Source: an uncultured Pelagibacteraceae bacterium
Lineage (GTDB): Bacteria > Pseudomonadota > Alphaproteobacteria > Pelagibacterales > Pelagibacteraceae
Direction: 5' to 3'
Assembly (NCBI GenBank): GCA_902614125.1
Contig: CACMJW010000002.1
Coordinates: forward strand, 37,244-101,243
Length of the DNA: 64,000 nt
The notes under the pieces were generated by a model. The model worked only from the letters and a program-made list of their open reading frames with translations, did no database searches and had not been told where the DNA came from. The translations under genes were made by a program, and so were the position numbers. Positions 9,290 to 21,135 of the stretch are shown here, in pieces (the first letter of the stretch is position 1; each line of letters opens with the position of its first letter).

Positions 9290-10732
9290 TTAAGTTTTGA
9301 GACCTAAGTGAGTATATTTTATATTTAAGTAATCTTTAATAGCCATAGAACCACCCTCTCGTCCATATCCAGTTTGTTTAATACCTCCAAATGGTGCCTC
9401 TGCTATTGCAACCGTTGGCGTGTTCACAGCCACACATCCAGTCTCCATTAATTCAGAGGCTTTATGTGCTTTTTCCATTGAGTTTGTATAAATATAACTA
9501 CACAATCCTAAATCATTATTATTCGCTCTTTCAACAACTTCATCAAAAGATTTAAAAGATAGCATAGGAACTAGAGGTCCAAATGGTTCTGTTTTCATTA
9601 TAGTAAAATTATCATCAACATCGTCAAATACAGTCGGCTCGTAAAAATATCCTTTGTTGAAGCCTGATGGTCTTTTTCCACCTATTAAAACTTTAGCACC
9701 TTCTTTTTTAGTTGTTTCTACAAGCTCTTCAATTTCGCCTAATCTTTTTAAAGTTGTTATAGGACCCAATTGAACATCTTGCTCCATACCATTTCCTATT
9801 TTTAATTTTTTAGTTTTTTCAATAAATTTGTTAACAAATTCATCTTTCTTACTTTCTTGAATGTAAAATCTATTTGGAGAAATACATACTTGTCCATTAT
9901 TTCTAAATTTTGCAGCAATGGCCATGTCAGCAACTTTTTCAATATTACAATCTTCAAATACAATAAAAGGAGAGTGACCACTTAATTCCATTGTTACTCT
10001 TTGAACTTTATCAGCTGCTTTCTTAAGTATTAATTTTCCAACTCTGGTTGATCCTGTAATTGAAACTTTTTTTACAATATCTGACTCAAGCAATTGCTCA
10101 GAAATTGAGGGAGGATCACCAGACAATAAATTAACAACTCCATCAGGAACACCACATTCTTTGCAGATGTCAACTAATTCCATAACTGTTCCAGGTGTTA
10201 TTACATCTGGCTTACAAATTACCGAGCATCCTGCAGCTAAGGCAGTAGAAATTTTTCTAGACGCTAATATTAGAGGAAAGTTCCATGGTACTAGTGCAGC
10301 AACAACCCCAACAGGCTGGTAGTAAACATGAACTCTAGTATCTGAAAATCTACTTTCAACAGTTTGTCCATATATTCTTTTTGTCTCCTCTGAGTTCCAT
10401 TCAAAAATATCGGCCGCACCACCTGCTTCACCAACCCCCTCTGCCAATGGTTTGCCAACCTCTAAAGTCATCCATTTGGCTAAAATATCTTTTTTCTCCC
10501 TTATCTTATCAGCTATTCTCCTTAAAACTTTAGATCTTTCCCAAGGTGTAGTATTTTTCCATTTTTTGAAACCACTCTCAGATGAGAGTAGTGCCTTTTC
10601 AACGTCTTCACGACAAGCTTTAGATGCATGTCCTAAAATTTCTTCTGTTGCAGGATTTATTACTTCGTATATCTCGTTGTTTTGAGACTTTTGCCACTTA
10701 CCATCAATAAATTGTCCAAACTTTTCATACAT
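9290..10732 (-). CDS. NAD(P)-dependent aldehyde dehydrogenase (SSADH / alpha-ketoglutarate-semialdehyde dehydrogenase-like)
   Basis: PWNFP; ITGST; MELSG; GQVCIS catalytic Cys; EPFGP; PFGG. Confidence 0.92.
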   Translation of the reverse strand: MYEKFGQFIDGKWQKSQNNEIYEVINPATEEILGHASKACREDVEKALLSSESGFKKWKNTTPWERSKVLRRIADKIREKKDILAKWMTLEVGKPLAEGVGEAGGAADIFEWNSEETKRIYGQTVESRFSDTRVHVYYQPVGVVAALVPWNFPLILASRKISTALAAGCSVICKPDVITPGTVMELVDICKECGVPDGVVNLLSGDPPSISEQLLESDIVKKVSITGSTRVGKLILKKAADKVQRVTMELSGHSPFIVFEDCNIEKVADMAIAAKFRNNGQVCISPNRFYIQESKKDEFVNKFIEKTKKLKIGNGMEQDVQLGPITTLKRLGEIEELVETTKKEGAKVLIGGKRPSGFNKGYFYEPTVFDDVDDNFTIMKTEPFGPLVPMLSFKSFDEVVERANNNDLGLCSYIYTNSMEKAHKASELMETGCVAVNTPTVAIAEAPFGGIKQTGYGREGGSMAIKDYLNIKYTHLGLKT

Positions 10733-10737
10733 AATTT

Positions 10738-11913
10738 TTATTCGATTATATTAAAATCTTTTTTATATTCTTCAGTAAGTGATAAACCCAAACCTGGTAT
10801 ATTATCATCTAAATTAATATATCCATCTTTTGGAGAAGGATCACCTTTAAATATATAATAAAAAAGTTCATTACCGACTTCAACATCATTTACAGGAAAA
10901 TATTCTGCTATCGGACAATTGAAGTTTGACATAGTTAGATGATAATTATGCATTTGACCAGCATGCGGTATAACCGGAACTTGATATGCTTCAGCAAGAG
11001 CATTTATTTTCTGTGCAATTGTAAAACCACCTACTCTGTTATTATCATATTGAATATAACTTAAGGCATTTAAATCTAACAATTGCTTAAACCCAAATAA
11101 ATTAAACTCATGCTCACCACCTGATATCGGTATGGCGTTCATATTGTTTAATTCTTTATATCCATTAATATCATCAGCAATTACTGGCTCCTCTAACCAC
11201 CTAGGGTTATATTTCACCAATTTAGGTATCATTCTTTTTGCATAATCTAAATTCCAGCCCATGTAACATTCCAACATTAAATCTGTGTTATAACCAATAA
11301 CTTCTCTTACAGCCTCAACTAACTGTATGTTTTTTTTCATTCCCTCTGACCCATCTTTTGGCCCCCAGCCAAATCTCATTTTAAACATTGTAAAACCCTG
11401 TTTTTTAAAATTCTCAGCTTCTTGCTGTAAATTTTTGATTGGTTGGGAATAAAGCTTAGATGCATAAACTGGTATTTTTTCCTTAGTTCTTCCACCCAAT
11501 AATTTAAATACTGGTTTATTTGTTAATTTTCCTAAAATATCCCATAAAGCTATATCAACTGCAGATATAGCAACCATGCCCAGACCTCTCCTCCCCCATG
11601 CGTGCGTTCTTCTATACATTTTTTCCCAAATATATGAAAAATCAAATGGATCCTCTCCAACAACTAATGGTGCGAGATATGTGTCTATTGTTTTTTTTAC
11701 TAATTGAGGAGCCAGAGCGGCATTTCCAATTCCTATAGTACCTTCGTCTGTTTCTACTTCACAAATTAACCATTCATGAAATCTGAAAGAACCCATTGCA
11801 TCTGATTTTTCATAGAGTAAATCTGAAGCATTTGTGCAAAAATTATTTTGTAGAGGAACTGTTTTACCATTCCATTGATAAACTTTTGTTCTTATTTCTT
11901 TAATTTTTGTCAT
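10738..11913 (-). CDS. lyxD: Enolase-superfamily sugar-acid dehydratase, L-lyxonate dehydratase-like
   Basis: KMR; LECY; WLEEP; GGEHE. The stretches [26 protein letters not shown] and [23 protein letters not shown] match my recollection of the characterised LyxD family. Confidence 0.75.
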
Positions 11914-11932
11914 TTTTTTTTATAAATTCATT

Positions 11933-12925
11933 TTAATTTTTATTTTCAGCCATTCTTAATGCAATTTTAAATGAATTCAAAGTTGGTTCTAATTTTGCCT
12001 GATTTTTTCCAGCGATATCAAACGCGGTTCCATGCGCAGGTGTTGTAATTGGAATTGGAAGACCACCTTGAACTGTTACTCCTCTATCAAATCCAAAAGC
12101 CTTTAGTCCAGATTGGAGAGCATCATGATACATTCCAACAATACAATCATGATTTTTATTTTTAAACGCTGTAATAAAAGAGGTATCACATGGTAAAGGA
12201 CCATCAGCATTAATACCAAGTTTTTTTGCTTCCTCTATTGCTGGGATTATCTCATCTTTTTCTTCATTACCAATTTCTGCATGGGGGTTAAGAGCTTGAA
12301 CTGCAACTCTTGGATTTTCTATACCATTTAACTTCATTGCTTCATTAATCAATTTTATAGGTTCCATTATTTTATCTTTCTTAATGTGTTCTGAAACTTC
12401 CTTTATAGGTATATGTGATGTAACTCGAGCAGTCCAAAAATTATCTACTACATTAAACTCGCAAAAAAAACTTTTAACGTTTAACTTATCAGCCATATGA
12501 TGTAATTCGTCATCAAATTTACACCCACCTAGTTTTAAACTTGTCTTGTTAAAAGGACCAAAATTAATAGCATCAATTTTTTTCTCTTTCGCAAGTTCTA
12601 GTGCTAAATTTAATGCATTTAAAACTGTTTCTCCAGATTCTGCGGAGCACTCAGATAAATTATAATCTTTGTTGTTACCTTTAGAGATATCTAAAAAAAA
12701 TTTATTTTTTTTATCAAAATTTATTTCATCAAAATCAGTAACAATTTCTAGGTCCGAGTTATTTCCTGTAATTTTATCTCCAGAATTTAGAATATTTTTT
12801 TCACCAATTACAGTAATGTTTGCGTTCGCTAGTTCGTTTTGGGCCAAAAGTTTTGATATAAGTTCTGGTCCAATACCGGATGGATCTCCTAGCAATAAAG
12901 CAATATTTTTTTTCTTATTTGTCAT
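11933..12925 (-). CDS. PdxA-family oxidative decarboxylase (2-carboxy-L-lyxonate decarboxylase-like by context)
   Basis: GDPSGIGPE; TSHIP; LNPHA; MYHD; TTPAHGTAFDIAGK; directly upstream of lyxD. Confidence 0.85.
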   Translation of the reverse strand: MTNKKKNIALLLGDPSGIGPELISKLLAQNELANANITVIGEKNILNSGDKITGNNSDLEIVTDFDEINFDKKNKFFLDISKGNNKDYNLSECSAESGETVLNALNLALELAKEKKIDAINFGPFNKTSLKLGGCKFDDELHHMADKLNVKSFFCEFNVVDNFWTARVTSHIPIKEVSEHIKKDKIMEPIKLINEAMKLNGIENPRVAVQALNPHAEIGNEEKDEIIPAIEEAKKLGINADGPLPCDTSFITAFKNKNHDCIVGMYHDALQSGLKAFGFDRGVTVQGGLPIPITTPAHGTAFDIAGKNQAKLEPTLNSFKIALRMAENKN

Positions 12926-12994
12926 CTTTTCTCTTACTGTTTCTAACAGATTATGATTAAATATTTAAATATAAATTAACTTAAGAGGGAAATA

Positions 12995-13969
12995 ATGAAA
13001 AAAAGTTTTAAATTATTCTTAGCTGCAGCTTTTGTAGTAACAGAATTTTTTATTGTTGCTCTTCCATTAATGATTACGTCTGCAAAAGCAGATGGTCATC
13101 CAATACAAGCAATTACTCACGCTGGTTTTGGTGGTGGAACAGATGTTACTACTAGAATGATGTTGTTAAGAGCAAGAAGAGTTTTAAAACAAGACATGCA
13201 ATTAGTTAATAAAAAAGGTGGCGGTGGAGCTGCATCTATGGATTACATGATGTCTTTACCCGCAGATGGTAATCACACTTTAACTTGGACTACTGGTCAC
13301 GCTGTATCAATGGCATTAGGAAAAACGAAAGTTAAATTGAGTGATATGCAGCCTTTAGCAAGAGGAACTGATGATCCTCAGTTATTTGTTGTAAACTGCA
13401 ATAACGACATCAAAGATGCTAAAAAATTTATTAGTACACAAAAATCAAAATCTTTGAAATATGGTACAACGCACACAGGTGGTATTGATGATGTAAGTGC
13501 AATAGCATTTACAAAAAAAGGTGGATTAAAGGATCCAACAATTGTTGCTTACAAAGGCGTGGCTCCTATTAAAACAAACCTAATTAAAGGAGACATAGAT
13601 GTAGGTGTTTTAAACCTAGGAGAAGCTTTGACTGAAATTAATGAAGGTAAACTTTGTGTTTCAGTAGTTCTTGCAAATAATAGAATGGCTAAAATCGGTG
13701 ACTCTCCAACAGCAAAAGAACTCGGTATTCCTGTTTCTTTATCTACTGTTAGAGGTTTTGTAACTAAGAAAGGTGCTCCAGCAGATAGAGTAAAACAATT
13801 AGAAGCAGGAATGTTAAAAGCTATGAGCCACAATTACTATAAAAATTTCTTAACCGAAATTGGATTGGACGACACAAGTGTTGTGGGTGCAGATGAGTGG
13901 GGTAAGCAAATGGAAGAGATGCTTGCTGAAATGACCGCTCAATTAAAAGCTTTGGGTTATATCAACTAA
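12995..13969 (+). CDS. tctC: Tripartite tricarboxylate transporter substrate-binding protein (TctC/Bug)
   Basis: Signal peptide; GGGTD; NKKGGGG; YKG; RGF; followed by TctB and TctA. Confidence 0.9.
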   Translation: MKKSFKLFLAAAFVVTEFFIVALPLMITSAKADGHPIQAITHAGFGGGTDVTTRMMLLRARRVLKQDMQLVNKKGGGGAASMDYMMSLPADGNHTLTWTTGHAVSMALGKTKVKLSDMQPLARGTDDPQLFVVNCNNDIKDAKKFISTQKSKSLKYGTTHTGGIDDVSAIAFTKKGGLKDPTIVAYKGVAPIKTNLIKGDIDVGVLNLGEALTEINEGKLCVSVVLANNRMAKIGDSPTAKELGIPVSLSTVRGFVTKKGAPADRVKQLEAGMLKAMSHNYYKNFLTEIGLDDTSVVGADEWGKQMEEMLAEMTAQLKALGYIN

Positions 13970-13989
13970 AGTAATTAGTACATTTACAA

Positions 13990-14496
13990 ATGAGTAATGT
14001 ACGCAATAAAAAAAGGGCAGGCAGTAGCTTGCCCTTTTTTTTTAAAGATTCAACTATTGTTTCATTTATCATTATTTTAATATCCTCGATACTTTTATAT
14101 ATTACTTTTACTTTTGATATTGTTCCGCCAATTTTAAATCGAGGGATACAACCTGCAACTTTTCCAAAAGCATTATTGTTATTAATAATATCTTTAACTT
14201 TAATAATTTTTTTTCTTTCTATTAAAAAACCTTGGAAAGAAGAAAAGAAACTCCCAACAGAATTCTATATTACACTAGGATGTTTTCTTTTATTTTTATT
14301 TGTTTCAAAATTTTTAGATTTTTTTTTAGGAATTTCATTACTTTCAGCAATTGTCTCCTATTTTTGGGGAGAAAGGAGATTAATATTTATTTTATTTGTA
14401 AGTATTTTATTTCCTATAATTGTGTTTATTTTTTTCGAAACCATTTTAGGATTACGATTCCCTTCTGGAATAATTACAGATTTATATTATAGCTAA
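13990..14496 (+). CDS. tctB: Tripartite tricarboxylate transporter TctB
   Basis: 4-5 TM; PATFP; C-terminal LRFPSG. Confidence 0.85.
   Translation: MSNVRNKKRAGSSLPFFFKDSTIVSFIIILISSILLYITFTFDIVPPILNRGIQPATFPKALLLLIISLTLIIFFLSIKKPWKEEKKLPTEFYITLGCFLLFLFVSKFLDFFLGISLLSAIVSYFWGERRLIFILFVSILFPIIVFIFFETILGLRFPSGIITDLYYS
14008..14043 (+). terminator. Intrinsic terminator-like hairpin inside the 5' end of tctB
   Basis: A7-GGGCAGGC-AGTA-GCTTGCCC-T9. Confidence 0.7.
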
Positions 14497-15962
14497 TGGA
14501 AAACTTATCCTTTATTCTTGCACCTTTATTTAGTTCTAAACTTTTAATAGTTTTATTTCTTGGTACTTTATTTGGATTAGTTTTAGGTGTTTTACCTGGC
14601 TTAGGGCCAACAACGGGAGGAGCATTAATTTTACCTTTTACAATGACACTAGATCCAATATCAGCAATAGTTTTATTAACTGCTATCTATTGTGCTGGGA
14701 CTTATGGTGGTGCAATAACTGCAATTTTAATTAATACCCCTGGAACTCCTGCTGCAGCTGCTACCTGCTTAGATGGTTATCCATTAGCACAAAAAGGAGA
14801 AGCTGGAAGAGCATTAGGAATGGCAACCGTTTCAAGTGTTGTTGGCGGATTAATTAGTGTTTTAGTTCTTATATTTTTTGCGCCACTTTTAGCACAATTA
14901 GCTTATGAATTTGGCCAACCAGAATACTTTGCGTTAGCAATATTTGGTTTAACAATGCTTGCTTCTATTGGTGAAGGTAGCCCAATTAAAAATTTAATTG
15001 CCGGAGCTTTTGGAATCTTAATTTCAACAGTAGGAAAAGATTTTATGACATCAATTGATAGATTTACATTTGGAATAAATGAATTAACTGAGGGGATTGG
15101 TTTTATTCCAGTTGTTGTTGGTTTATTTGCAATTAGCGAGATGCTAACTCAATCTACGCTTTTAAATCAGGTATTTAACAGAGTTGCATTAAAAGCAGTA
15201 AAACTTCCAACAAAAGATGATTATAAAAAGACGTGGAAGACCATTCTTAGGTCGAGTGGAATAGGTTCGTTCATAGGAGTTTTACCTGCTGAAGGTGGAA
15301 CAGTTGCATCTTTAATAGGATATTCTGAAGCTAAAAGATGGTCAAAAAAACCAGAAGATTTTGGAAAAGGATCTATAGAAGGAATTGCTGGAGCTGAAGC
15401 TGCAAATAATGCTGCAACTGGAGGTGCTATGGTACCAACACTTGCATTAGGAATTCCAGGTAGTGCTACAACAGCAGTTATATTAACCGGTTTAATTATT
15501 CATGGAGTAAGACCAGGCCCAGATCTTTTTAGAGAACAACCAGAATTCCTTTATGGAATATTTGGATCAATGTTAATCGCTAACATACTTTTTTTTATAT
15601 TAGGTTTCTTTGGAGCTAAATTATTTGCTAGAATTACTTTAGTACCAAATAAATTATTATGGCCAATGATTTTTGCAATTTCTGTTTGTGGTACTTATTC
15701 TTTAAGCCAGTCTTTGACAGATGTTTGGATAATGTTGCTTTTTGGAGTTATTGGTTTTTTTATGCGAAGATATGGTTTTTCAGTAGTTCCCGTCATTATT
15801 GGATTAATTCTTGGAGAACTTGTCGAGGGAACTTTAAGGCAGTCATTAGTGATATTTGAGGGAAACTGGCTTATGTTTTTCCAAAGACCAATTGTACTAA
15901 TATTTTTTATTTTATCTTTAATTGCTTTAGGTTTTCCGTTAATTAAAAAGAAAAAAATATGA
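14496..15962 (+). CDS. tctA: Tripartite tricarboxylate transporter TctA
   Basis: GVLPGLG; YGGAITAILINTPG; EAANNA; LGIPG; GVRPGP. Confidence 0.95.
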   Translation: MENLSFILAPLFSSKLLIVLFLGTLFGLVLGVLPGLGPTTGGALILPFTMTLDPISAIVLLTAIYCAGTYGGAITAILINTPGTPAAAATCLDGYPLAQKGEAGRALGMATVSSVVGGLISVLVLIFFAPLLAQLAYEFGQPEYFALAIFGLTMLASIGEGSPIKNLIAGAFGILISTVGKDFMTSIDRFTFGINELTEGIGFIPVVVGLFAISEMLTQSTLLNQVFNRVALKAVKLPTKDDYKKTWKTILRSSGIGSFIGVLPAEGGTVASLIGYSEAKRWSKKPEDFGKGSIEGIAGAEAANNAATGGAMVPTLALGIPGSATTAVILTGLIIHGVRPGPDLFREQPEFLYGIFGSMLIANILFFILGFFGAKLFARITLVPNKLLWPMIFAISVCGTYSLSQSLTDVWIMLLFGVIGFFMRRYGFSVVPVIIGLILGELVEGTLRQSLVIFEGNWLMFFQRPIVLIFFILSLIALGFPLIKKKKI

Positions 15963-16708
15963 ATAATTTTGATTTAAAAAATAAAGTTGCAATAGTAACT
16001 GGCGGAGCTCAAGGTTTTGGCTTTGCTATTACTGAAAAATTTTTGACCTCAGGTGCTAAAGTTTTGATTTGGGATATTGATGAGAAGGGAGCTAATGATG
16101 CTTTAAAAAAATTGAATAATGAAAATTGCTCTTATCAAAAGGTAGATGTTAATAATTTTAATGATATTGAAAAAACATTAAAACAAATTGAGAGTTCTCA
16201 TGGCAAAATAGATATTTTTATAAATAACGCTGGAATTACTGGGATGAATGCAACAATTGCTGATTATCCAACAGACGAGTGGGAAAAGGTTATTAATTTA
16301 AATTTGAATGCGGTTTTTTACTGCTGCAAAGCTGTTGTTCCTTACATGATTAAACAAAATTACGGTAGAATTGTAAATATTTCCTCAATTGCTGGAAAAG
16401 AGGGAAACCCTAATGCTGGAGCTTATAGCACATCAAAAGCAGGCGTAATCGGACTAACAAAATCTTTAGGAAAAGAATTAGCTCAAAAAAATATAGCAGT
16501 TAATTGTGTTACCCCTGCAGCTGCAAAGACAAGAATTTTTGATCAAATGACCAAAGAACATATTGATTATATGTTATCAAAAATTCCAAGAAATAAATTT
16601 GCAAAAGTAGAGGAATTAGCATCACTGGTAACGTGGCTCTCAAGCGAGGAAAATTCTTTTTCAACAGCGGCTGTATTTGATTTAAGTGGGGGAAGAGCTA
16701 CTTATTAA
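15959..16708 (+). CDS. SDR oxidoreductase, 2-keto-3-deoxy-sugar-acid 4-dehydrogenase (LRA5-like)
   Basis: TGGAQGFG; NNAG; GKEGNPNAGAYSTSKAGVIGLTKSLGKELA; C-terminal FDLSGGRATY. Confidence 0.8.
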   Translation: MNNFDLKNKVAIVTGGAQGFGFAITEKFLTSGAKVLIWDIDEKGANDALKKLNNENCSYQKVDVNNFNDIEKTLKQIESSHGKIDIFINNAGITGMNATIADYPTDEWEKVINLNLNAVFYCCKAVVPYMIKQNYGRIVNISSIAGKEGNPNAGAYSTSKAGVIGLTKSLGKELAQKNIAVNCVTPAAAKTRIFDQMTKEHIDYMLSKIPRNKFAKVEELASLVTWLSSEENSFSTAAVFDLSGGRATY

Positions 16709-17569
16709 ATGAAAATTGGCTTCATTGGAACTGGATTAATGGGTGTTCCAATGATCAAAAACTTATTAAAATCTAAAAATAAGATAAGTATTTTCAATAG
16801 AACAATAAAAAAAGCTCAAAAACTTAGTAAATATGGAGCAATTGTATCCTTAAGTATTGATCAATTAGTTAAGGACAAAGATGTGATTATAACAATGTTA
16901 ACTGATGATAAAGCAGTAAATCAAATAATCAGTAGCAAAAAATTTCAACAAAACATTAATAAAAAAACAACAGTAATAGACATGAGCTCAACAAAACCAA
17001 TTACAGCTTTAAATAACTATAAAAAATTAAAAAAATTAGGAGTTTATTTCTTAGATGCTCCTGTTTCTGGAGGCACTAAAGGAGCCGAGGATGCTAGCCT
17101 TGCAATAATGGTTGGTGGAGATAAAAGAATATTTAATAAAAACCTAAAAGTTCTACAGATTTTTGGAAATCCAAATTACGTAGGAAAATCATCCTCTGGT
17201 CAGGCTACCAAATTAGCAAACCAAATCATTGTTGGTATCACTATTGGTGCGGTATCAGAAGCAATTATATTATGTAAGAAACTAGGTTTAAATTTAAAAA
17301 ATGTTTTAAAGGCCTTAGAAGGAGGATGGGCTGATAGTAAAATATTGCAAACACATGGATTAAGAATGATAAATAATGATTTTAGACCCAGGGGGAAAGT
17401 ATCATCACAATTGAAAGATATGAAAAATATTTTAATTACAGCAAAAATGAATAAATTAAATCTACCACTTTCTAAGATTATAAGAAATATGTATAAACAA
17501 CTATCAAAAAAAGGTTATAATAATTTAGATCACAGTTACTTATTTAAAGAGATTAAAAACTATTTTTAA
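16709..17569 (+). CDS. Beta-hydroxyacid dehydrogenase (GlxR/GarR/3-hydroxyisobutyrate dehydrogenase family)
   Basis: GFIGTGLMG; DAPVSGG; KLANQ; KD motif. Confidence 0.88.
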   Translation: MKIGFIGTGLMGVPMIKNLLKSKNKISIFNRTIKKAQKLSKYGAIVSLSIDQLVKDKDVIITMLTDDKAVNQIISSKKFQQNINKKTTVIDMSSTKPITALNNYKKLKKLGVYFLDAPVSGGTKGAEDASLAIMVGGDKRIFNKNLKVLQIFGNPNYVGKSSSGQATKLANQIIVGITIGAVSEAIILCKKLGLNLKNVLKALEGGWADSKILQTHGLRMINNDFRPRGKVSSQLKDMKNILITAKMNKLNLPLSKIIRNMYKQLSKKGYNNLDHSYLFKEIKNYF

Positions 17570-17588
17570 TAATATTAATGGAGATAGA

Positions 17589-18431
17589 ATGAAACTACTA
17601 AGAATTGGAAAAAAAGAAAATGAAAAACCAGCCGCAATAGACAAAGATGGCAAGATCAGAGATTTAAGTTCACATATTCAAGATTTAAATCCTGGTCATT
17701 TAAATTTCGATGCTATTTCAAAATTACAAAGTCTAGACTTATCCTCACTACCGGAGCTATCCTCAAACGAAAGAATTGGCTCATGTATTACAAACCCAGG
17801 TAAATTTGTTGCTATTGGATTAAATTTTTCTGATCACGCAGCTGAAACTGGAGCAAAACCTCCTACTGAACCTATAGTATTTATGAAGGCAACTAGTTGT
17901 ATAAACGGACCAAATGACGATATAGAAATTACTAAAGACTCAAAAAAACTTGATTGGGAAGTTGAATTGGGGGTAGTCATTGGAAAACATACCAAACATA
18001 TTTCTGAAAATCAGTCTCAAGATCATATTTTAGGATATTGTTTAGTAAATGATGTCAGCGAAAGAGAATGGCAAATCGAAAAAATGGGACAATGGGTTAA
18101 AGGAAAATCACATGATACCTACGGTCCAATTGGCCCATATTTGGTTACTAAAGATGAGATTTCTGATGTAAATAATTTAAATATGTTTTTGGATTTAAAT
18201 GGTGAAAGAATGCAAACTGGTAACACAAACACCATGATTTTTAATGTGAATATAATTGTTTCATATTTGAGTAAATTTATGTCTTTACATCCAGGGGATA
18301 TTATAACTACTGGAACTCCCCCTGGAGTTGGTATGGGAATGAAGCCACAAAAATTTCTAAAAGCTGGTGATAAAATGAGATTATCAGTTGATAATTTGGG
18401 AGAACAAAACTCCAAAGTTGTACTAATATAG
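17589..18431 (+). CDS. Fumarylacetoacetate hydrolase family protein (LRA6-like 2,4-diketo-acid hydrolase)
   Basis: IGLNFSDHAAE; DWEVELG; NDVSER; KGKS; TGTPPGVG. Confidence 0.88.
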   Translation: MKLLRIGKKENEKPAAIDKDGKIRDLSSHIQDLNPGHLNFDAISKLQSLDLSSLPELSSNERIGSCITNPGKFVAIGLNFSDHAAETGAKPPTEPIVFMKATSCINGPNDDIEITKDSKKLDWEVELGVVIGKHTKHISENQSQDHILGYCLVNDVSEREWQIEKMGQWVKGKSHDTYGPIGPYLVTKDEISDVNNLNMFLDLNGERMQTGNTNTMIFNVNIIVSYLSKFMSLHPGDIITTGTPPGVGMGMKPQKFLKAGDKMRLSVDNLGEQNSKVVLI

Positions 18432-18450: not shown

Positions 18451-21135
18451 ATGATCAAAAGAGATTTATATTATGAGAGGATTCCAACAAAATCCCTTAG
18501 AGATGATGTAAGACTTCTTGGAAACATACTGGGAAGTGTTATTAAAAAACAAGAGGGACAGACTTTTTTTAATCTTGTTGAAAAAATAAGAAACCTTTCA
18601 AAAGCAAATAGACCTAATATTAAACAAAAAGACTCATACAAGAAAATTTCGAAAACATTAAGTCAAATTAGTCCAAATAATACTTATAAAATTACAAGGG
18701 CATTTTCTCATTTTATGAATTTTATAAATCTTGCGGAATCTATTGATGCTTCAAGAACTTTAGATGAATTCGAGAATAATAAAGCTAAAGCAAACAAAAA
18801 TATTTTTATAGAGGAAATTTTTGAGGAACTTTTTAAGGATAGAAAAATTTCATCTAATAAAATCTACAATACTGCAAAAAATTTAAATATTGGTATTGTG
18901 TTAACAGCACATCCTACAGAGGTAAAAAGACGAACACTTATACAAAAATATCACAATATTACAGCACTCTTAGAACAAAGAGAATTGATGAAAAGTTTCC
19001 CCTCAAAACAAAAAATTATAGATAGAAAATTATATGATGAAATTACAATTATATGGAATACAGATGACTTGAAGAGAACAAAACCTTCTCCATTTGATGA
19101 AGCAAGATGGGGACTTGCTATAATCGAGGATAGTTTGTGGGAAACTATTCCGAAGGTATACAGGAGATTAAATAGCATTTTTGTTAAAAATATGGGCAAG
19201 GGTCTTCCAAAAAATTTTAATCCAATTGAATTTGGATCTTGGATGGGTGGAGATAGAGATGGTAACCCAAATGTAACTGCAGATGTGACTAAAGAAGTAA
19301 TTTTATTATCTCGATGGGAGGCAGCAAAATTGTATGAAAAATCTTTAACAAAATTAATTAGATCTTATTCAATGGGAAAATGCTCAAAAGAGATTAAAAA
19401 AAAAACAGGCGAGTCATTTGAACCCTATAGAGTTTATTTACGTCCGCTCAGAGACAAAATGAGAATTACTCACAGATCCATCGAACAACATTTAGTTTAC
19501 AACAAACCATTGAATGAAGAAATGTTGCTAAATTCACGAGAAGAAATTTTAAAACCATTAAGAGTTGTTAGAAAATCTTTGGAAGAAAACCAAAATGAAA
19601 ATTTAGCGAGTGGTGAATTATTGGATTTAATGAGAAGAGCTAAATGTTTCGGAATAAATCTTGCTAGATTAGATATAAGACAAGAGTCATCCAGACATTC
19701 CCAATTGATAGCAGAATATATAAAAAGAAAATATCAACAAAACTACTATAAATGGAGCGAAAGGAAAAAAATTAATTTTTTAGCAAATCAAATTAAAAAG
19801 AAGAGAAACTTATTAACTAATTTTGAATTTAAAAATAAAGAAAATAAAGAAGTTTGGTCAACTTTCAAAACAATCTCTAAACAACCAGATGAGTGCCTAG
19901 GAGCATATGTCATTTCAATGACCTCGTCTATTTCTGACATAGTAACTGTCTCATTTTTACAAAAAGAAGCGCAAATCAAAAATAAATTAAGAGTTGTTCC
20001 ATTATTTGAAACTTTGGACGATCTAATAAACTCAAAAGCCATTATGCACTCACTTTTTCAAGAAAAATGGTACAGAAAATTGATAAATAACAAACAAGAA
20101 GTGATGATTGGTTACTCAGACTCTAGTAAGGACGCTGGTAAAATATGCGCAAGTTGGCATCAATATAAAGCACAAGAGGAAATAGTTAAACTTGCAAAAA
20201 AATATAAAATCGATGTAACTTTTTTTCATGGTAGGGGTGGCTCTGCTGGTAGAGGAGGTGGTCCAATACAAGCCACACTTAGATCTCAACCTCCATACTC
20301 GGTTAATGGTAAAATAAGAATTACAGATCAGGGAGAAGTTATACAGCAAAAATATGGTTATGAGCCTTTAGCTAAATATAATTTATGTAGTTATATAGGA
20401 GCTGTTACAGAGGCAACCCTCAATCCTCCACCTGTACCAAAAAAGAATTGGAGAGAGTTAATTGAAAAAATGTCAGATATTTCAAAAAGTTCATATAGAA
20501 AAAATATTAATCAAAATTCTGATTTTATTAGGTATTTTAAAACAGTAACACCACATGTATCTTTAGGTAAACTCTTAATTGGATCAAGACCATCTAAGAG
20601 AAAAAATGTAGATAACATAAAAAGCTTAAGAGCAATACCTTGGGTATTTGCATGGACTCAAATAAGACTTATGTTACCAGCGTGGTTAGGTAGCGCAGAG
20701 GCATTAAGATATTCTTCAATTAAAAAATTTAAAAGTACTCTTCTAGACATGGAAAGAAACTGGCCATTTTTTAATTCAATGTTAGATATCTTAGATATGG
20801 TCATTTCAAAAGTTGATCCAGAAATATCAAAAATTTATGAAAAATATTTAGCAGATCATAAACTTATAAGGATTGGTAAAAAATTAAGATACCAATTTGA
20901 AACAATAAAAAAATTAAATAAAAAAATAACTCCTAAAGAAATAATAAATGCCAGAAAACAATTTAGGAATATTATTGTTGCAAGAAATATTTACACAGAG
21001 GTGCTCAATGTTATTCAGCCAATTGTTATATCGAAGCTAAAAATAACCAAAGGAAAAGAAAATAAAAAGAATTTAAATGATGCATTGTTAACTTCGATAG
21101 CCGGTATTTCTGCAGCAATGAAAAATACTGGATAA
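18451..21135 (+). CDS. ppc: Phosphoenolpyruvate carboxylase
   Basis: VLTAHPT; SWMGGDRDGNP; MIGYSDS; FHGRGG; LRAIPWVFAW; C-terminal MKNTG. Confidence 0.98.
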   Translation: MIKRDLYYERIPTKSLRDDVRLLGNILGSVIKKQEGQTFFNLVEKIRNLSKANRPNIKQKDSYKKISKTLSQISPNNTYKITRAFSHFMNFINLAESIDASRTLDEFENNKAKANKNIFIEEIFEELFKDRKISSNKIYNTAKNLNIGIVLTAHPTEVKRRTLIQKYHNITALLEQRELMKSFPSKQKIIDRKLYDEITIIWNTDDLKRTKPSPFDEARWGLAIIEDSLWETIPKVYRRLNSIFVKNMGKGLPKNFNPIEFGSWMGGDRDGNPNVTADVTKEVILLSRWEAAKLYEKSLTKLIRSYSMGKCSKEIKKKTGESFEPYRVYLRPLRDKMRITHRSIEQHLVYNKPLNEEMLLNSREEILKPLRVVRKSLEENQNENLASGELLDLMRRAKCFGINLARLDIRQESSRHSQLIAEYIKRKYQQNYYKWSERKKINFLANQIKKKRNLLTNFEFKNKENKEVWSTFKTISKQPDECLGAYVISMTSSISDIVTVSFLQKEAQIKNKLRVVPLFETLDDLINSKAIMHSLFQEKWYRKLINNKQEVMIGYSDSSKDAGKICASWHQYKAQEEIVKLAKKYKIDVTFFHGRGGSAGRGGGPIQATLRSQPPYSVNGKIRITDQGEVIQQKYGYEPLAKYNLCSYIGAVTEATLNPPPVPKKNWRELIEKMSDISKSSYRKNINQNSDFIRYFKTVTPHVSLGKLLIGSRPSKRKNVDNIKSLRAIPWVFAWTQIRLMLPAWLGSAEALRYSSIKKFKSTLLDMERNWPFFNSMLDILDMVISKVDPEISKIYEKYLADHKLIRIGKKLRYQFETIKKLNKKITPKEIINARKQFRNIIVARNIYTEVLNVIQPIVISKLKITKGKENKKNLNDALLTSIAGISAAMKNTG

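Follow-up and report, generated by a model that had tools for sequence, protein, structure and literature searches.

A LyxD-PdxA/TctCBA cassette beside a Route III-type back end in a SAR11 genomic island: a predicted route from L-lyxonate-type acids to pyruvate and glycolate

We analyzed a 64,000-nucleotide stretch of contig CACMJW010000002.1 (assembly GCA_902614125.1; hereafter, the window) from an uncultured Pelagibacteraceae bacterium of the SAR11 group, and focused on nine intact genes at positions 9290–18431 that together may convert an L-lyxonate-type acid to pyruvate and glycolate. The host genome is 1.18 Mb long with a GC content of approximately 30%, and its closest named relatives are Pelagibacteraceae single-cell genomes. 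The assembly is 81% complete, and all genome-wide negative results below refer to it at that completeness. The open reading frame listing and scans against Pfam and NCBIfam profiles recovered every gene of the divergent island described in the initial annotation, and each gene was full length compared with its profile. Three genes lie on the minus strand, encoding an aldehyde dehydrogenase (ALDH; 9290–10732), an enolase-superfamily protein of the mandelate-racemase subgroup that is orthologous to LyxD (10738–11913), and a PdxA-family protein (11933–12925; PF04166, 253 bits). Six genes lie on the plus strand. The first three encode TctC, the periplasmic binding protein of a tripartite tricarboxylate transporter (TTT) (12995–13969; PF03401), the small membrane subunit TctB (13990–14496; PF07331), and the large membrane subunit TctA (14496–15962; PF01970, 536 bits); these consecutive genes make up a complete TTT. 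They are followed by genes for a short-chain dehydrogenase/reductase (SDR) of the LRA5 type (15959–16708), a beta-hydroxyacid dehydrogenase resembling tartronate-semialdehyde reductase (HAD; 16709–17569), and an FAH-family protein of the LRA6 type, a predicted 2,4-diketo-3-deoxy-acid hydrolase (17589–18431; NCBIfam NF053535, 398 bits). The flanking genes are unrelated to the island, namely EamA and homocysteine methyltransferase genes upstream and, downstream on the plus strand, the phosphoenolpyruvate (PEP) carboxylase gene ppc, which starts at 18451.

The nine genes are tightly packed. The divergent spacer between the PdxA-family gene and tctC is 69 bp and the gap between lyxD and the PdxA-family gene is 19 bp, the tctA and SDR genes overlap by 4 bp, and no base separates the SDR and HAD genes. 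A scan for promoters and terminators found 38 sites, compared with 43.6 expected in shuffled sequence, and was uninformative on operon structure. A GC-rich hairpin (14020–14033) followed by nine T residues is located within the first codons of annotated tctB, just past tctC; either expression may be attenuated on passing from the binding-protein gene to those of the membrane subunits, or the start of tctB may be mis-set. We scanned species-representative genomes and obtained 80 LyxD loci. The core order, LyxD-PdxA divergent from TctCBA-SDR, is kept in 35 of the 36 SAR11 loci with enough flanking sequence and is found again in congeneric relatives. The gene arrangement is not a chance juxtaposition.

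The enolase-family gene, initially described as LyxD-like, is a clear orthologue of LyxD, as judged by its bit scores and catalytic residues. The protein matched the Protein Data Bank (PDB) structures 3ssz, 3stp, and 3sqs with 653–686 bits, compared with 203 bits for the next-best family, L-rhamnonate dehydratase. We take 3STP to be the Labrenzia LyxD that Ghasempur and colleagues described in 2014. The alignment to roseobacter LyxD was ungapped, with 70–72% identity, and K178-M-R180 (the K-x-R motif at the end of strand 2) and the dyad of H317 and D290 (strands 7 and 6) were conserved; identity to the genes at the LyxD position in roseobacters and Cupriavidus was 65–72%. L-Lyxonate dehydratase activity is predicted accordingly.

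A PdxA-family gene adjoins lyxD in 79 of the 80 loci, which are distributed among Alpha-, Beta-, and Gammaproteobacteria, and the single exception is cut by a contig end. Thus, the partnership of the two genes that had been proposed from the window held in every uncut locus. The PdxA-family protein of the window scored below every PdxA and PdxA2 equivalog cut-off of NCBIfam. Among LyxD-linked PdxAs, that of Cupriavidus sp. EM10 was 43% identical to it (E = 3e-81), and those of roseobacters were 39–44% identical. It was closer to the LyxD-linked proteins than to solved PdxA and PdxA2 structures (approximately 140 bits). Further, it had no match at E ≤ 1e-20 among the other PdxA-family genes of its own genome. 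By analogy with the Cupriavidus pathway, the enzyme would be an NAD-dependent decarboxylase that converts 2-carboxy-L-lyxonate to L-lyxonate. A four-carbon acid-sugar pathway of the PdxA2/DUF1537 type was rejected because no kinase is encoded by the nine genes or by the flanking genes.

TctCBA is located beside LyxD in 13 loci outside SAR11, where TctC is 48–54% identical to that of the window, and PdxA-LyxD of Cupriavidus sp. EM10 comes after a TctC-like gene. The ligand of TctC is predicted to be 2-carboxy-L-lyxonate and/or L-lyxonate. The core TTT binding protein of strain HTCC1062, which binds citrate, is a different paralogue. As stated in the initial annotation, the upstream enzymes of ascorbate degradation are absent from the window; further, a search of the 81%-complete assembly for the Amidohydro_2 and SGL lactonase families gave no match, which is consistent with the uptake of decay products that are already opened. 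Diketogulonate gives rise to 2-carboxy-L-pentonate and its lactones, from which L-lyxonate and L-xylonate form by slow decarboxylation (PMC11066805).

The SDR carries motifs by which it had been likened to LRA5, YSTSK at residue 156 and GGRATY at residue 244. Its best solved relatives were 9jve (310 bits), 9kq1 (301 bits), and 6d9y (284 bits), and all other structures scored 193 bits or less. Presumably, 9JVE and 9KQ1 are the structures of 2-keto-3-deoxy-L-rhamnonate (L-KDR) 4-dehydrogenase (L-KDRDH) of Akagashi and Watanabe from 2025. 6D9Y is a putative L-KDRDH that is 51–54% identical to characterized enzymes, and its Lys209 and Arg247 were proposed to be ligands of the C1 carboxylate (PMC11199699). 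Both residues are conserved in the SDR as K208 (in MLSKIP) and R246 (in GGRATY), and Y156 and K160 are also present. The protein thus falls into the 4(R)-specific class of dehydrogenases acting on L-KDR and 2-keto-3-deoxy-L-pentonate (L-KDP), and not into the class of 2-keto-3-deoxy-L-fuconate dehydrogenase (L-KDFDH) and BDH2 or that of FabG. L-Lyxonate and L-arabinonate share the configuration of C4, so the product of LyxD is the same L-KDP and an enzyme of the L-KDRDH stereo-class is required. The SDR is accordingly a candidate for the oxidation of L-KDP to 5-hydroxy-2,4-dioxopentanoate. A homologue search matched only near-identical metagenome proteins, none of which had a functional name. 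Outside the window, a paralogue of the SDR (61% identical) is present at G000:C2:136456–141845 (L020:5456–10849), after a TRAP transporter and a gene of the cytosine/purine-permease family, with no FAH gene nearby.

The FAH protein aligned with the LRA6 structure 8gsr (L-2,4-diketo-3-deoxyrhamnonate hydrolase) over residues 2–277 with 298 bits. The residues D82-H83-A-A-E86, which include a His83/Glu86 dyad, and the metal ligands E124, E126, and D155 aligned with those of 8gsr, and the dyad has the same residue numbers as in the hydrolase C785_RS20550 (PMC6336799). The possibility had been raised that this protein is instead a dehydratase of the KdlD type, the enzyme that acts on L-KDP in the known pathway. 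The 2-keto-3-deoxy-D-arabinonate dehydratase KdaD (PDB 2q18) was absent among its matches at E ≤ 1e-20, and BLASTP against a LyxD-linked, KdaD-like protein of 329 amino acids gave E = 0.07, which is not significant. The FAH protein would therefore be an LRA6-type diketo-acid hydrolase, not KdlD, with pyruvate and glycolate as predicted products, and the resemblance of the SDR and FAH to the LRA5/LRA6 pair that was noted initially is borne out by structure matches and conserved residues. We rejected an assignment of FAH as an oxaloacetate decarboxylase or acylpyruvase tied to ppc, because FAHD1 scored 115 bits compared with 298 bits for LRA6, and because lactonase or enolase genes part FAH from ppc in relatives.

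We compared the genes that follow LyxD across the loci. Outside SAR11, a KdlD candidate was located directly after LyxD in 37 of 38 loci, none of which carries the SDR. The candidate is of the dihydrodipicolinate synthase (DHDPS) type in 31 loci (checked with Pfam in L080 and L089, and assigned in the others by 59–92% identity to the L080 protein) and is the KdaD-like protein of 329 amino acids in six. Most of these loci also possess an ALDH of approximately 500 amino acids, which completes the known route to alpha-ketoglutarate. Within SAR11, in the same 35 of 36 loci, tctA is immediately followed by the SDR gene, and KdlD is missing. The exception is strain HIMB1517, in which a 329-aa protein and a 506-aa ALDH are encoded beside TctCBA-PdxA-LyxD, and whose genome has no orthologue of the SDR (best match 38%) or of FAH (best match 43%). 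Strain Uisw_127 encodes an SDR and an FAH that are 76% and 75% identical to those of the window, approximately 9 kb apart in the same island. In the genome of the window, neither a DHDPS-type KdlD nor one of the 329-aa KdaD-like type was found, in agreement with the KdlD-free reading of the cluster given initially.

The 329-aa family occurs at the KdlD position in HIMB1517 (L062:4915–5904) and also in loci L064, L065, L068, L078, L085, and L093. It has no Pfam match, and its sole solved relative is the FAH-superfamily enzyme KdaD (2q18; E = 9e-5). Judged from this distant similarity, the family is probably a divergent FAH-superfamily 2-keto-3-deoxy-L-pentonate dehydratase. In Ruegeria sp. Alg231-54 (L080:6092–16083), IS240/IS6-type DDE transposase genes are present on both sides of a TctCBA-LyxD-KdlD-GntR-PdxA-ALDH block, which looks like a composite transposon with a self-contained lyxonate module.

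Of 36 further genomes belonging to the genus, 11 carried LyxD; it was not found in any of the 24 genomes searched from other families of the order. The counts for PdxA were the same. FAH of the 80% type was found in 8 of 12 LyxD-positive and 4 of 25 LyxD-negative genomes of the genus, these genomes being related to each other and 55–100% complete.

The absence of KdlD, the position of the SDR after tctA, and the LRA6-type FAH suggest that L-lyxonate is most likely converted to pyruvate and glycolate. On the basis of homology and gene neighborhood, the best-supported reading, which we regard as probable to a moderate degree, is that an L-lyxonate-type acid is processed to these products by a LyxD-PdxA/TctCBA cassette placed on a resident back end of the Route III type. 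In this scheme, TctCBA would import 2-carboxy-L-lyxonate and/or L-lyxonate, both of which are decay products of ascorbate (PMC11066805). LyxD, for which the homology is strong, would dehydrate L-lyxonate to L-KDP, and the preceding conversion of 2-carboxy-L-lyxonate to L-lyxonate by the PdxA-family enzyme is suggested by the linkage of the two genes and by the pathway reported in Cupriavidus. The SDR would then oxidize C4 of L-KDP with NAD+, as indicated by homology, stereo-class, and gene linkage, and FAH would cleave the resulting 2,4-diketo acid to pyruvate and glycolate, as its homology and the Herbaspirillum precedent C785_RS20550 suggest. Further, the genome encodes a GlcD-like protein (521 bits; cut-off, 568 bits) with a GlcE-like neighbor, and glycolate could therefore be oxidized to glyoxylate by a GlcD/E-like oxidase encoded elsewhere in the genome.

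The cluster differs from the canonical L-lyxonate gene set of LyxD, KdlD, and alpha-ketoglutarate semialdehyde dehydrogenase (KGSADH), as it has no KdlD and its ALDH is probably not the cognate one. The canonical set was reportedly described in Pseudomonas aeruginosa PAO1 by Ghasempur and colleagues in 2014, with LyxD, KdlD, and KGSADH acting in turn to yield alpha-ketoglutarate. LyxD as the first enzyme, the L-KDP intermediate, and the PdxA-family gene partner are common to PAO1 and SAR11. In contrast, the SAR11 cluster possesses an L-KDRDH-type SDR and an LRA6-type hydrolase in place of KdlD and KGSADH, and a TTT where PAO1 has a transporter of the major facilitator superfamily (MFS). L-Ascorbate catabolism in Cupriavidus necator H16 is said to have been described by Stack and colleagues in 2020 (as cited in PMC10444878 and PMC11066805), including the formation of L-lyxonate from 2-carboxy-L-lyxonate by an enzyme of the PdxA family. 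There, as predicted here, a PdxA-family decarboxylase feeds LyxD; however, the cytochrome b561, gluconolactonase, beta-propeller rearrangement enzyme, and amidohydrolase of strain H16 are absent from the window, and the predicted end products are pyruvate and glycolate instead of alpha-ketoglutarate.

The chemistry after L-KDP resembles Route III of Herbaspirillum huttiense, in which the NAD-dependent SDR C785_RS20555 oxidizes L-KDP and L-KDR and a hydrolase of the FAH family carrying a His83/Glu86 dyad, C785_RS20550, then yields pyruvate and glycolate (Watanabe et al., 2019; PMC6336799). The same succession of 4-dehydrogenation and FAH-family hydrolysis is predicted in SAR11. However, L-KDP is formed from L-arabinose by an IlvD-type dehydratase in Herbaspirillum, and it would be formed from L-lyxonate in SAR11, through LyxD, the PdxA-family decarboxylase, and the TTT. 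The SKA58 system (Watanabe and Makino, 2009; LRA6 structure, 8GSR) shares the enzyme families and catalytic residues, but differs in that the acid predicted here has five carbons, that glycolate would be released instead of L-lactate, and that the FAH of the window scores below the NCBIfam LRA6 cut-off. The joining of the LyxD and PdxA steps to Route III, and the assignment of such a cassette in SAR11, were not found in the literature searched, and a survey of the SAR11 flexible genome that covers nine TTT versions does not mention PdxA, enolase, or "sugar acid" (PMC11796062). Thus, the split into pyruvate and glycolate put forward in the initial annotation is the best-supported outcome, but its chemistry has been published as Route III (PMC6336799). 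The LyxD step, the PdxA step, and Route III have each been published, and what is new is their combination in SAR11.

The island had also been read as one dedicated pathway, and this was only partly sustained. The complete genome G013 lacks LyxD, PdxA, and Tct, and carries ALDH-SDR-ROK-sugar ABC transporter genes and, further along, IlvD-type dehydratase-SDR-FAH-lactonase-ppc. The SDR, FAH, and ALDH are thus backbone genes of the island, and LyxD-PdxA-TctCBA is a cassette located between ALDH and SDR. HAD, too, persists in this LyxD-less relative, and all four genes are part of a variable sugar-acid island. In genomes G004 and G018, a second module, TRAP-HAD-SDR2-FAH-enolase2-SMP30 lactonase, is located next to ppc. 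Its SDR2 belongs to the opposite class, L-KDFDH/BDH2 (2ag5, 311 bits; 8xwk, 267 bits). The window retains only HAD and FAH of this module; SDR2, enolase2, and the module lactonase have no orthologues in its genome. Further, in most SAR11 loci, ribose and inositol-like cassettes part LyxD from ALDH. In G004 (L011:783–9104) and its equivalents, this interval encodes an IolD-like thiamine pyrophosphate (TPP) enzyme, a GFO/IDH/MocA oxidoreductase, a 2-hydroxyacid dehydrogenase, a ribose-type ABC transporter, RbsD, and a PfkB kinase, none of which is present in the window.

Such shuffling admits a rival explanation, namely that the enzymes have come together by accident, with the SDR, HAD, FAH, and ALDH serving other sugar or sugar-acid cassettes (of the L-rhamnose/L-fucose type or for pentoses) and LyxD-PdxA-TctCBA acting on another hydroxy-dicarboxylate or being a decaying remnant. 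The mosaic structure leans toward it and also weighs against conversion of L-lyxonate to pyruvate and glycolate by the genes of this island. The SDR, FAH, and ALDH are not dedicated to lyxonate, because they occur in the LyxD-less G013, there in the company of the sugar ABC transporter, IlvD-type dehydratase, and lactonase, and in G004 and G018 FAH is part of the second module. The insertion points of cassettes for ribose, inositol-like compounds, and sugars vary among relatives. In G018 (L022:9727–15477) and G024 (L113:4871–10575), PdxA-TctCBA-SDR is present but LyxD is cleanly absent, PdxA is abutted by a ribokinase gene, and the PdxA proteins are 72–74% identical to that of the window; hence, PdxA-TctCBA-SDR can persist without LyxD. 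In G024, TctC is 98.8% identical to that of the window and PdxA only 74%, which suggests recombination inside the cassette. Other observations weigh against the conversion itself. SDRs that are 59–62% identical follow an MR/MLE-family gene on Cereibacter sphaeroides plasmid pA (L104:6798–8747) and on a plasmid of Martelella sp. NC18 (L105), in clusters with an M81 peptidase, a succinylglutamate desuccinylase-like gene, and a peptide-type ABC transporter. Also, the score of FAH on NF053535, the LRA6 equivalog of NCBIfam, lies below the cut-off of 500 bits (the next family reached 175 bits), the window PdxA shares only 39–44% identity with LyxD-linked PdxAs of other classes, the assembly is only 81% complete, and the tight spacing is weak evidence for an operon because SAR11 genes are packed everywhere. 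Against accidental juxtaposition stand the constant tctA-SDR order in 35 of 36 SAR11 loci and the SDR being of the very stereo-class needed for L-KDP. Moreover, LyxD without a downstream enzyme would be useless, yet all genes of the cluster are intact and keep 70–98% identity across many single-cell genomes, and in HIMB1517, which alone among the SAR11 genomes lacks the SDR and FAH, KdlD- and KGSADH-like genes take their place. We therefore consider this explanation rather unlikely.

The ALDH bears on the two other alternatives. Its nearest solved relatives are succinate semialdehyde dehydrogenase (SSADH; 3jz4, 401 bits) and KGSADH (5x5t, 374 bits), and it was only 21–27% identical to the LyxD-linked ALDHs elsewhere. 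In L011, L013, and L113 it is oriented toward an IolD-like gene, in L013 it adjoins an HpcH aldolase, and in G013 it is located next to the SDR. Thus, the parallel alpha-ketoglutarate branch through ALDH that had been suggested at first is unsupported, given this low identity and the IolD-like and HpcH partners, and the ALDH is a backbone gene of the island that is probably outside the predicted lyxonate route. A Dahms-like Route I would use this enzyme differently: an HpcH/HpaI-family aldolase encoded elsewhere would split L-KDP into pyruvate and glycolaldehyde, and the ALDH would oxidize the latter to glycolate, giving the same end products through other intermediates. The ALDH abuts LyxD in the window, L059, L060, and L063, an orthologous ALDH is located beside an HpcH aldolase in G025, and the host genome has two HpcH-family genes (C1:175165 and C10:35777). 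However, neither the cluster nor its vicinity encodes an aldolase, the ALDH of most SAR11 loci is located approximately 8 kb from LyxD behind the ribose and inositol-like cassettes, it is kept in the LyxD-less G013, and the relatives named above are not lactaldehyde or glycolaldehyde dehydrogenases, all of which makes Route I improbable. The canonical Route II, in which an unrecognized or unassembled KdlD would convert L-KDP to alpha-ketoglutarate semialdehyde for oxidation by the ALDH, gains from the KGSADH-like grouping of the ALDH, from being the rule outside SAR11, and from the incompleteness of the genome, but is very improbable, since neither type of KdlD was found in the assembly, the contiguous cluster leaves no space for a missing gene, the ALDH is distant from the LyxD-linked ones, and FAH, which is unrelated to the KdaD-like proteins, is of the LRA6 type with a hydrolase dyad.

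The HAD, which had been counted among the pathway genes, is dispensable, since L059 and L096, which are equivalent loci, lack it; the SDR of L059 is directly followed by a different FAH (56% identical). HAD scored 243 bits on TIGR01505, below the cut-off of 341 bits, and 219 bits with PDB 4dll. It is probably without a step in the pathway and carried over from the neighboring module. Its assignment as an L-threonate dehydrogenase orthologue was rejected (131 bits compared with a cut-off of 350 bits).

SAR11 bacteria are the dominant group of the surface ocean, and their requirement for pyruvate and for a precursor of glycine is unusual. Carini and colleagues reportedly found in 2013 that cultured SAR11 need pyruvate, as a source of alanine and central carbon, and glycolate, as a precursor of glycine. 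Few substrates of the TTT transporters of the SAR11 flexible genome are known. We tentatively propose that approximately one third of the genomes of the genus import non-enzymatic decay products of vitamin C (2-carboxy-L-pentonates and L-lyxonate), and that the same front end sits on swapped back ends, producing alpha-ketoglutarate in HIMB1517, and pyruvate and glycolate here and in Uisw_127. Each back end is represented by a cultured strain (Uisw_127 and HIMB1517), so the prediction can be put to a direct test. If true, a ligand class would be named for one widespread TTT paralogue, and the decay products of ascorbate would join the pool of labile dissolved organic matter that SAR11 uses. Further, a streamlined genome would have re-routed a known pathway by a two-gene swap, and the island would provide a natural case of the swapping of pathway branches within a flexible genomic island.

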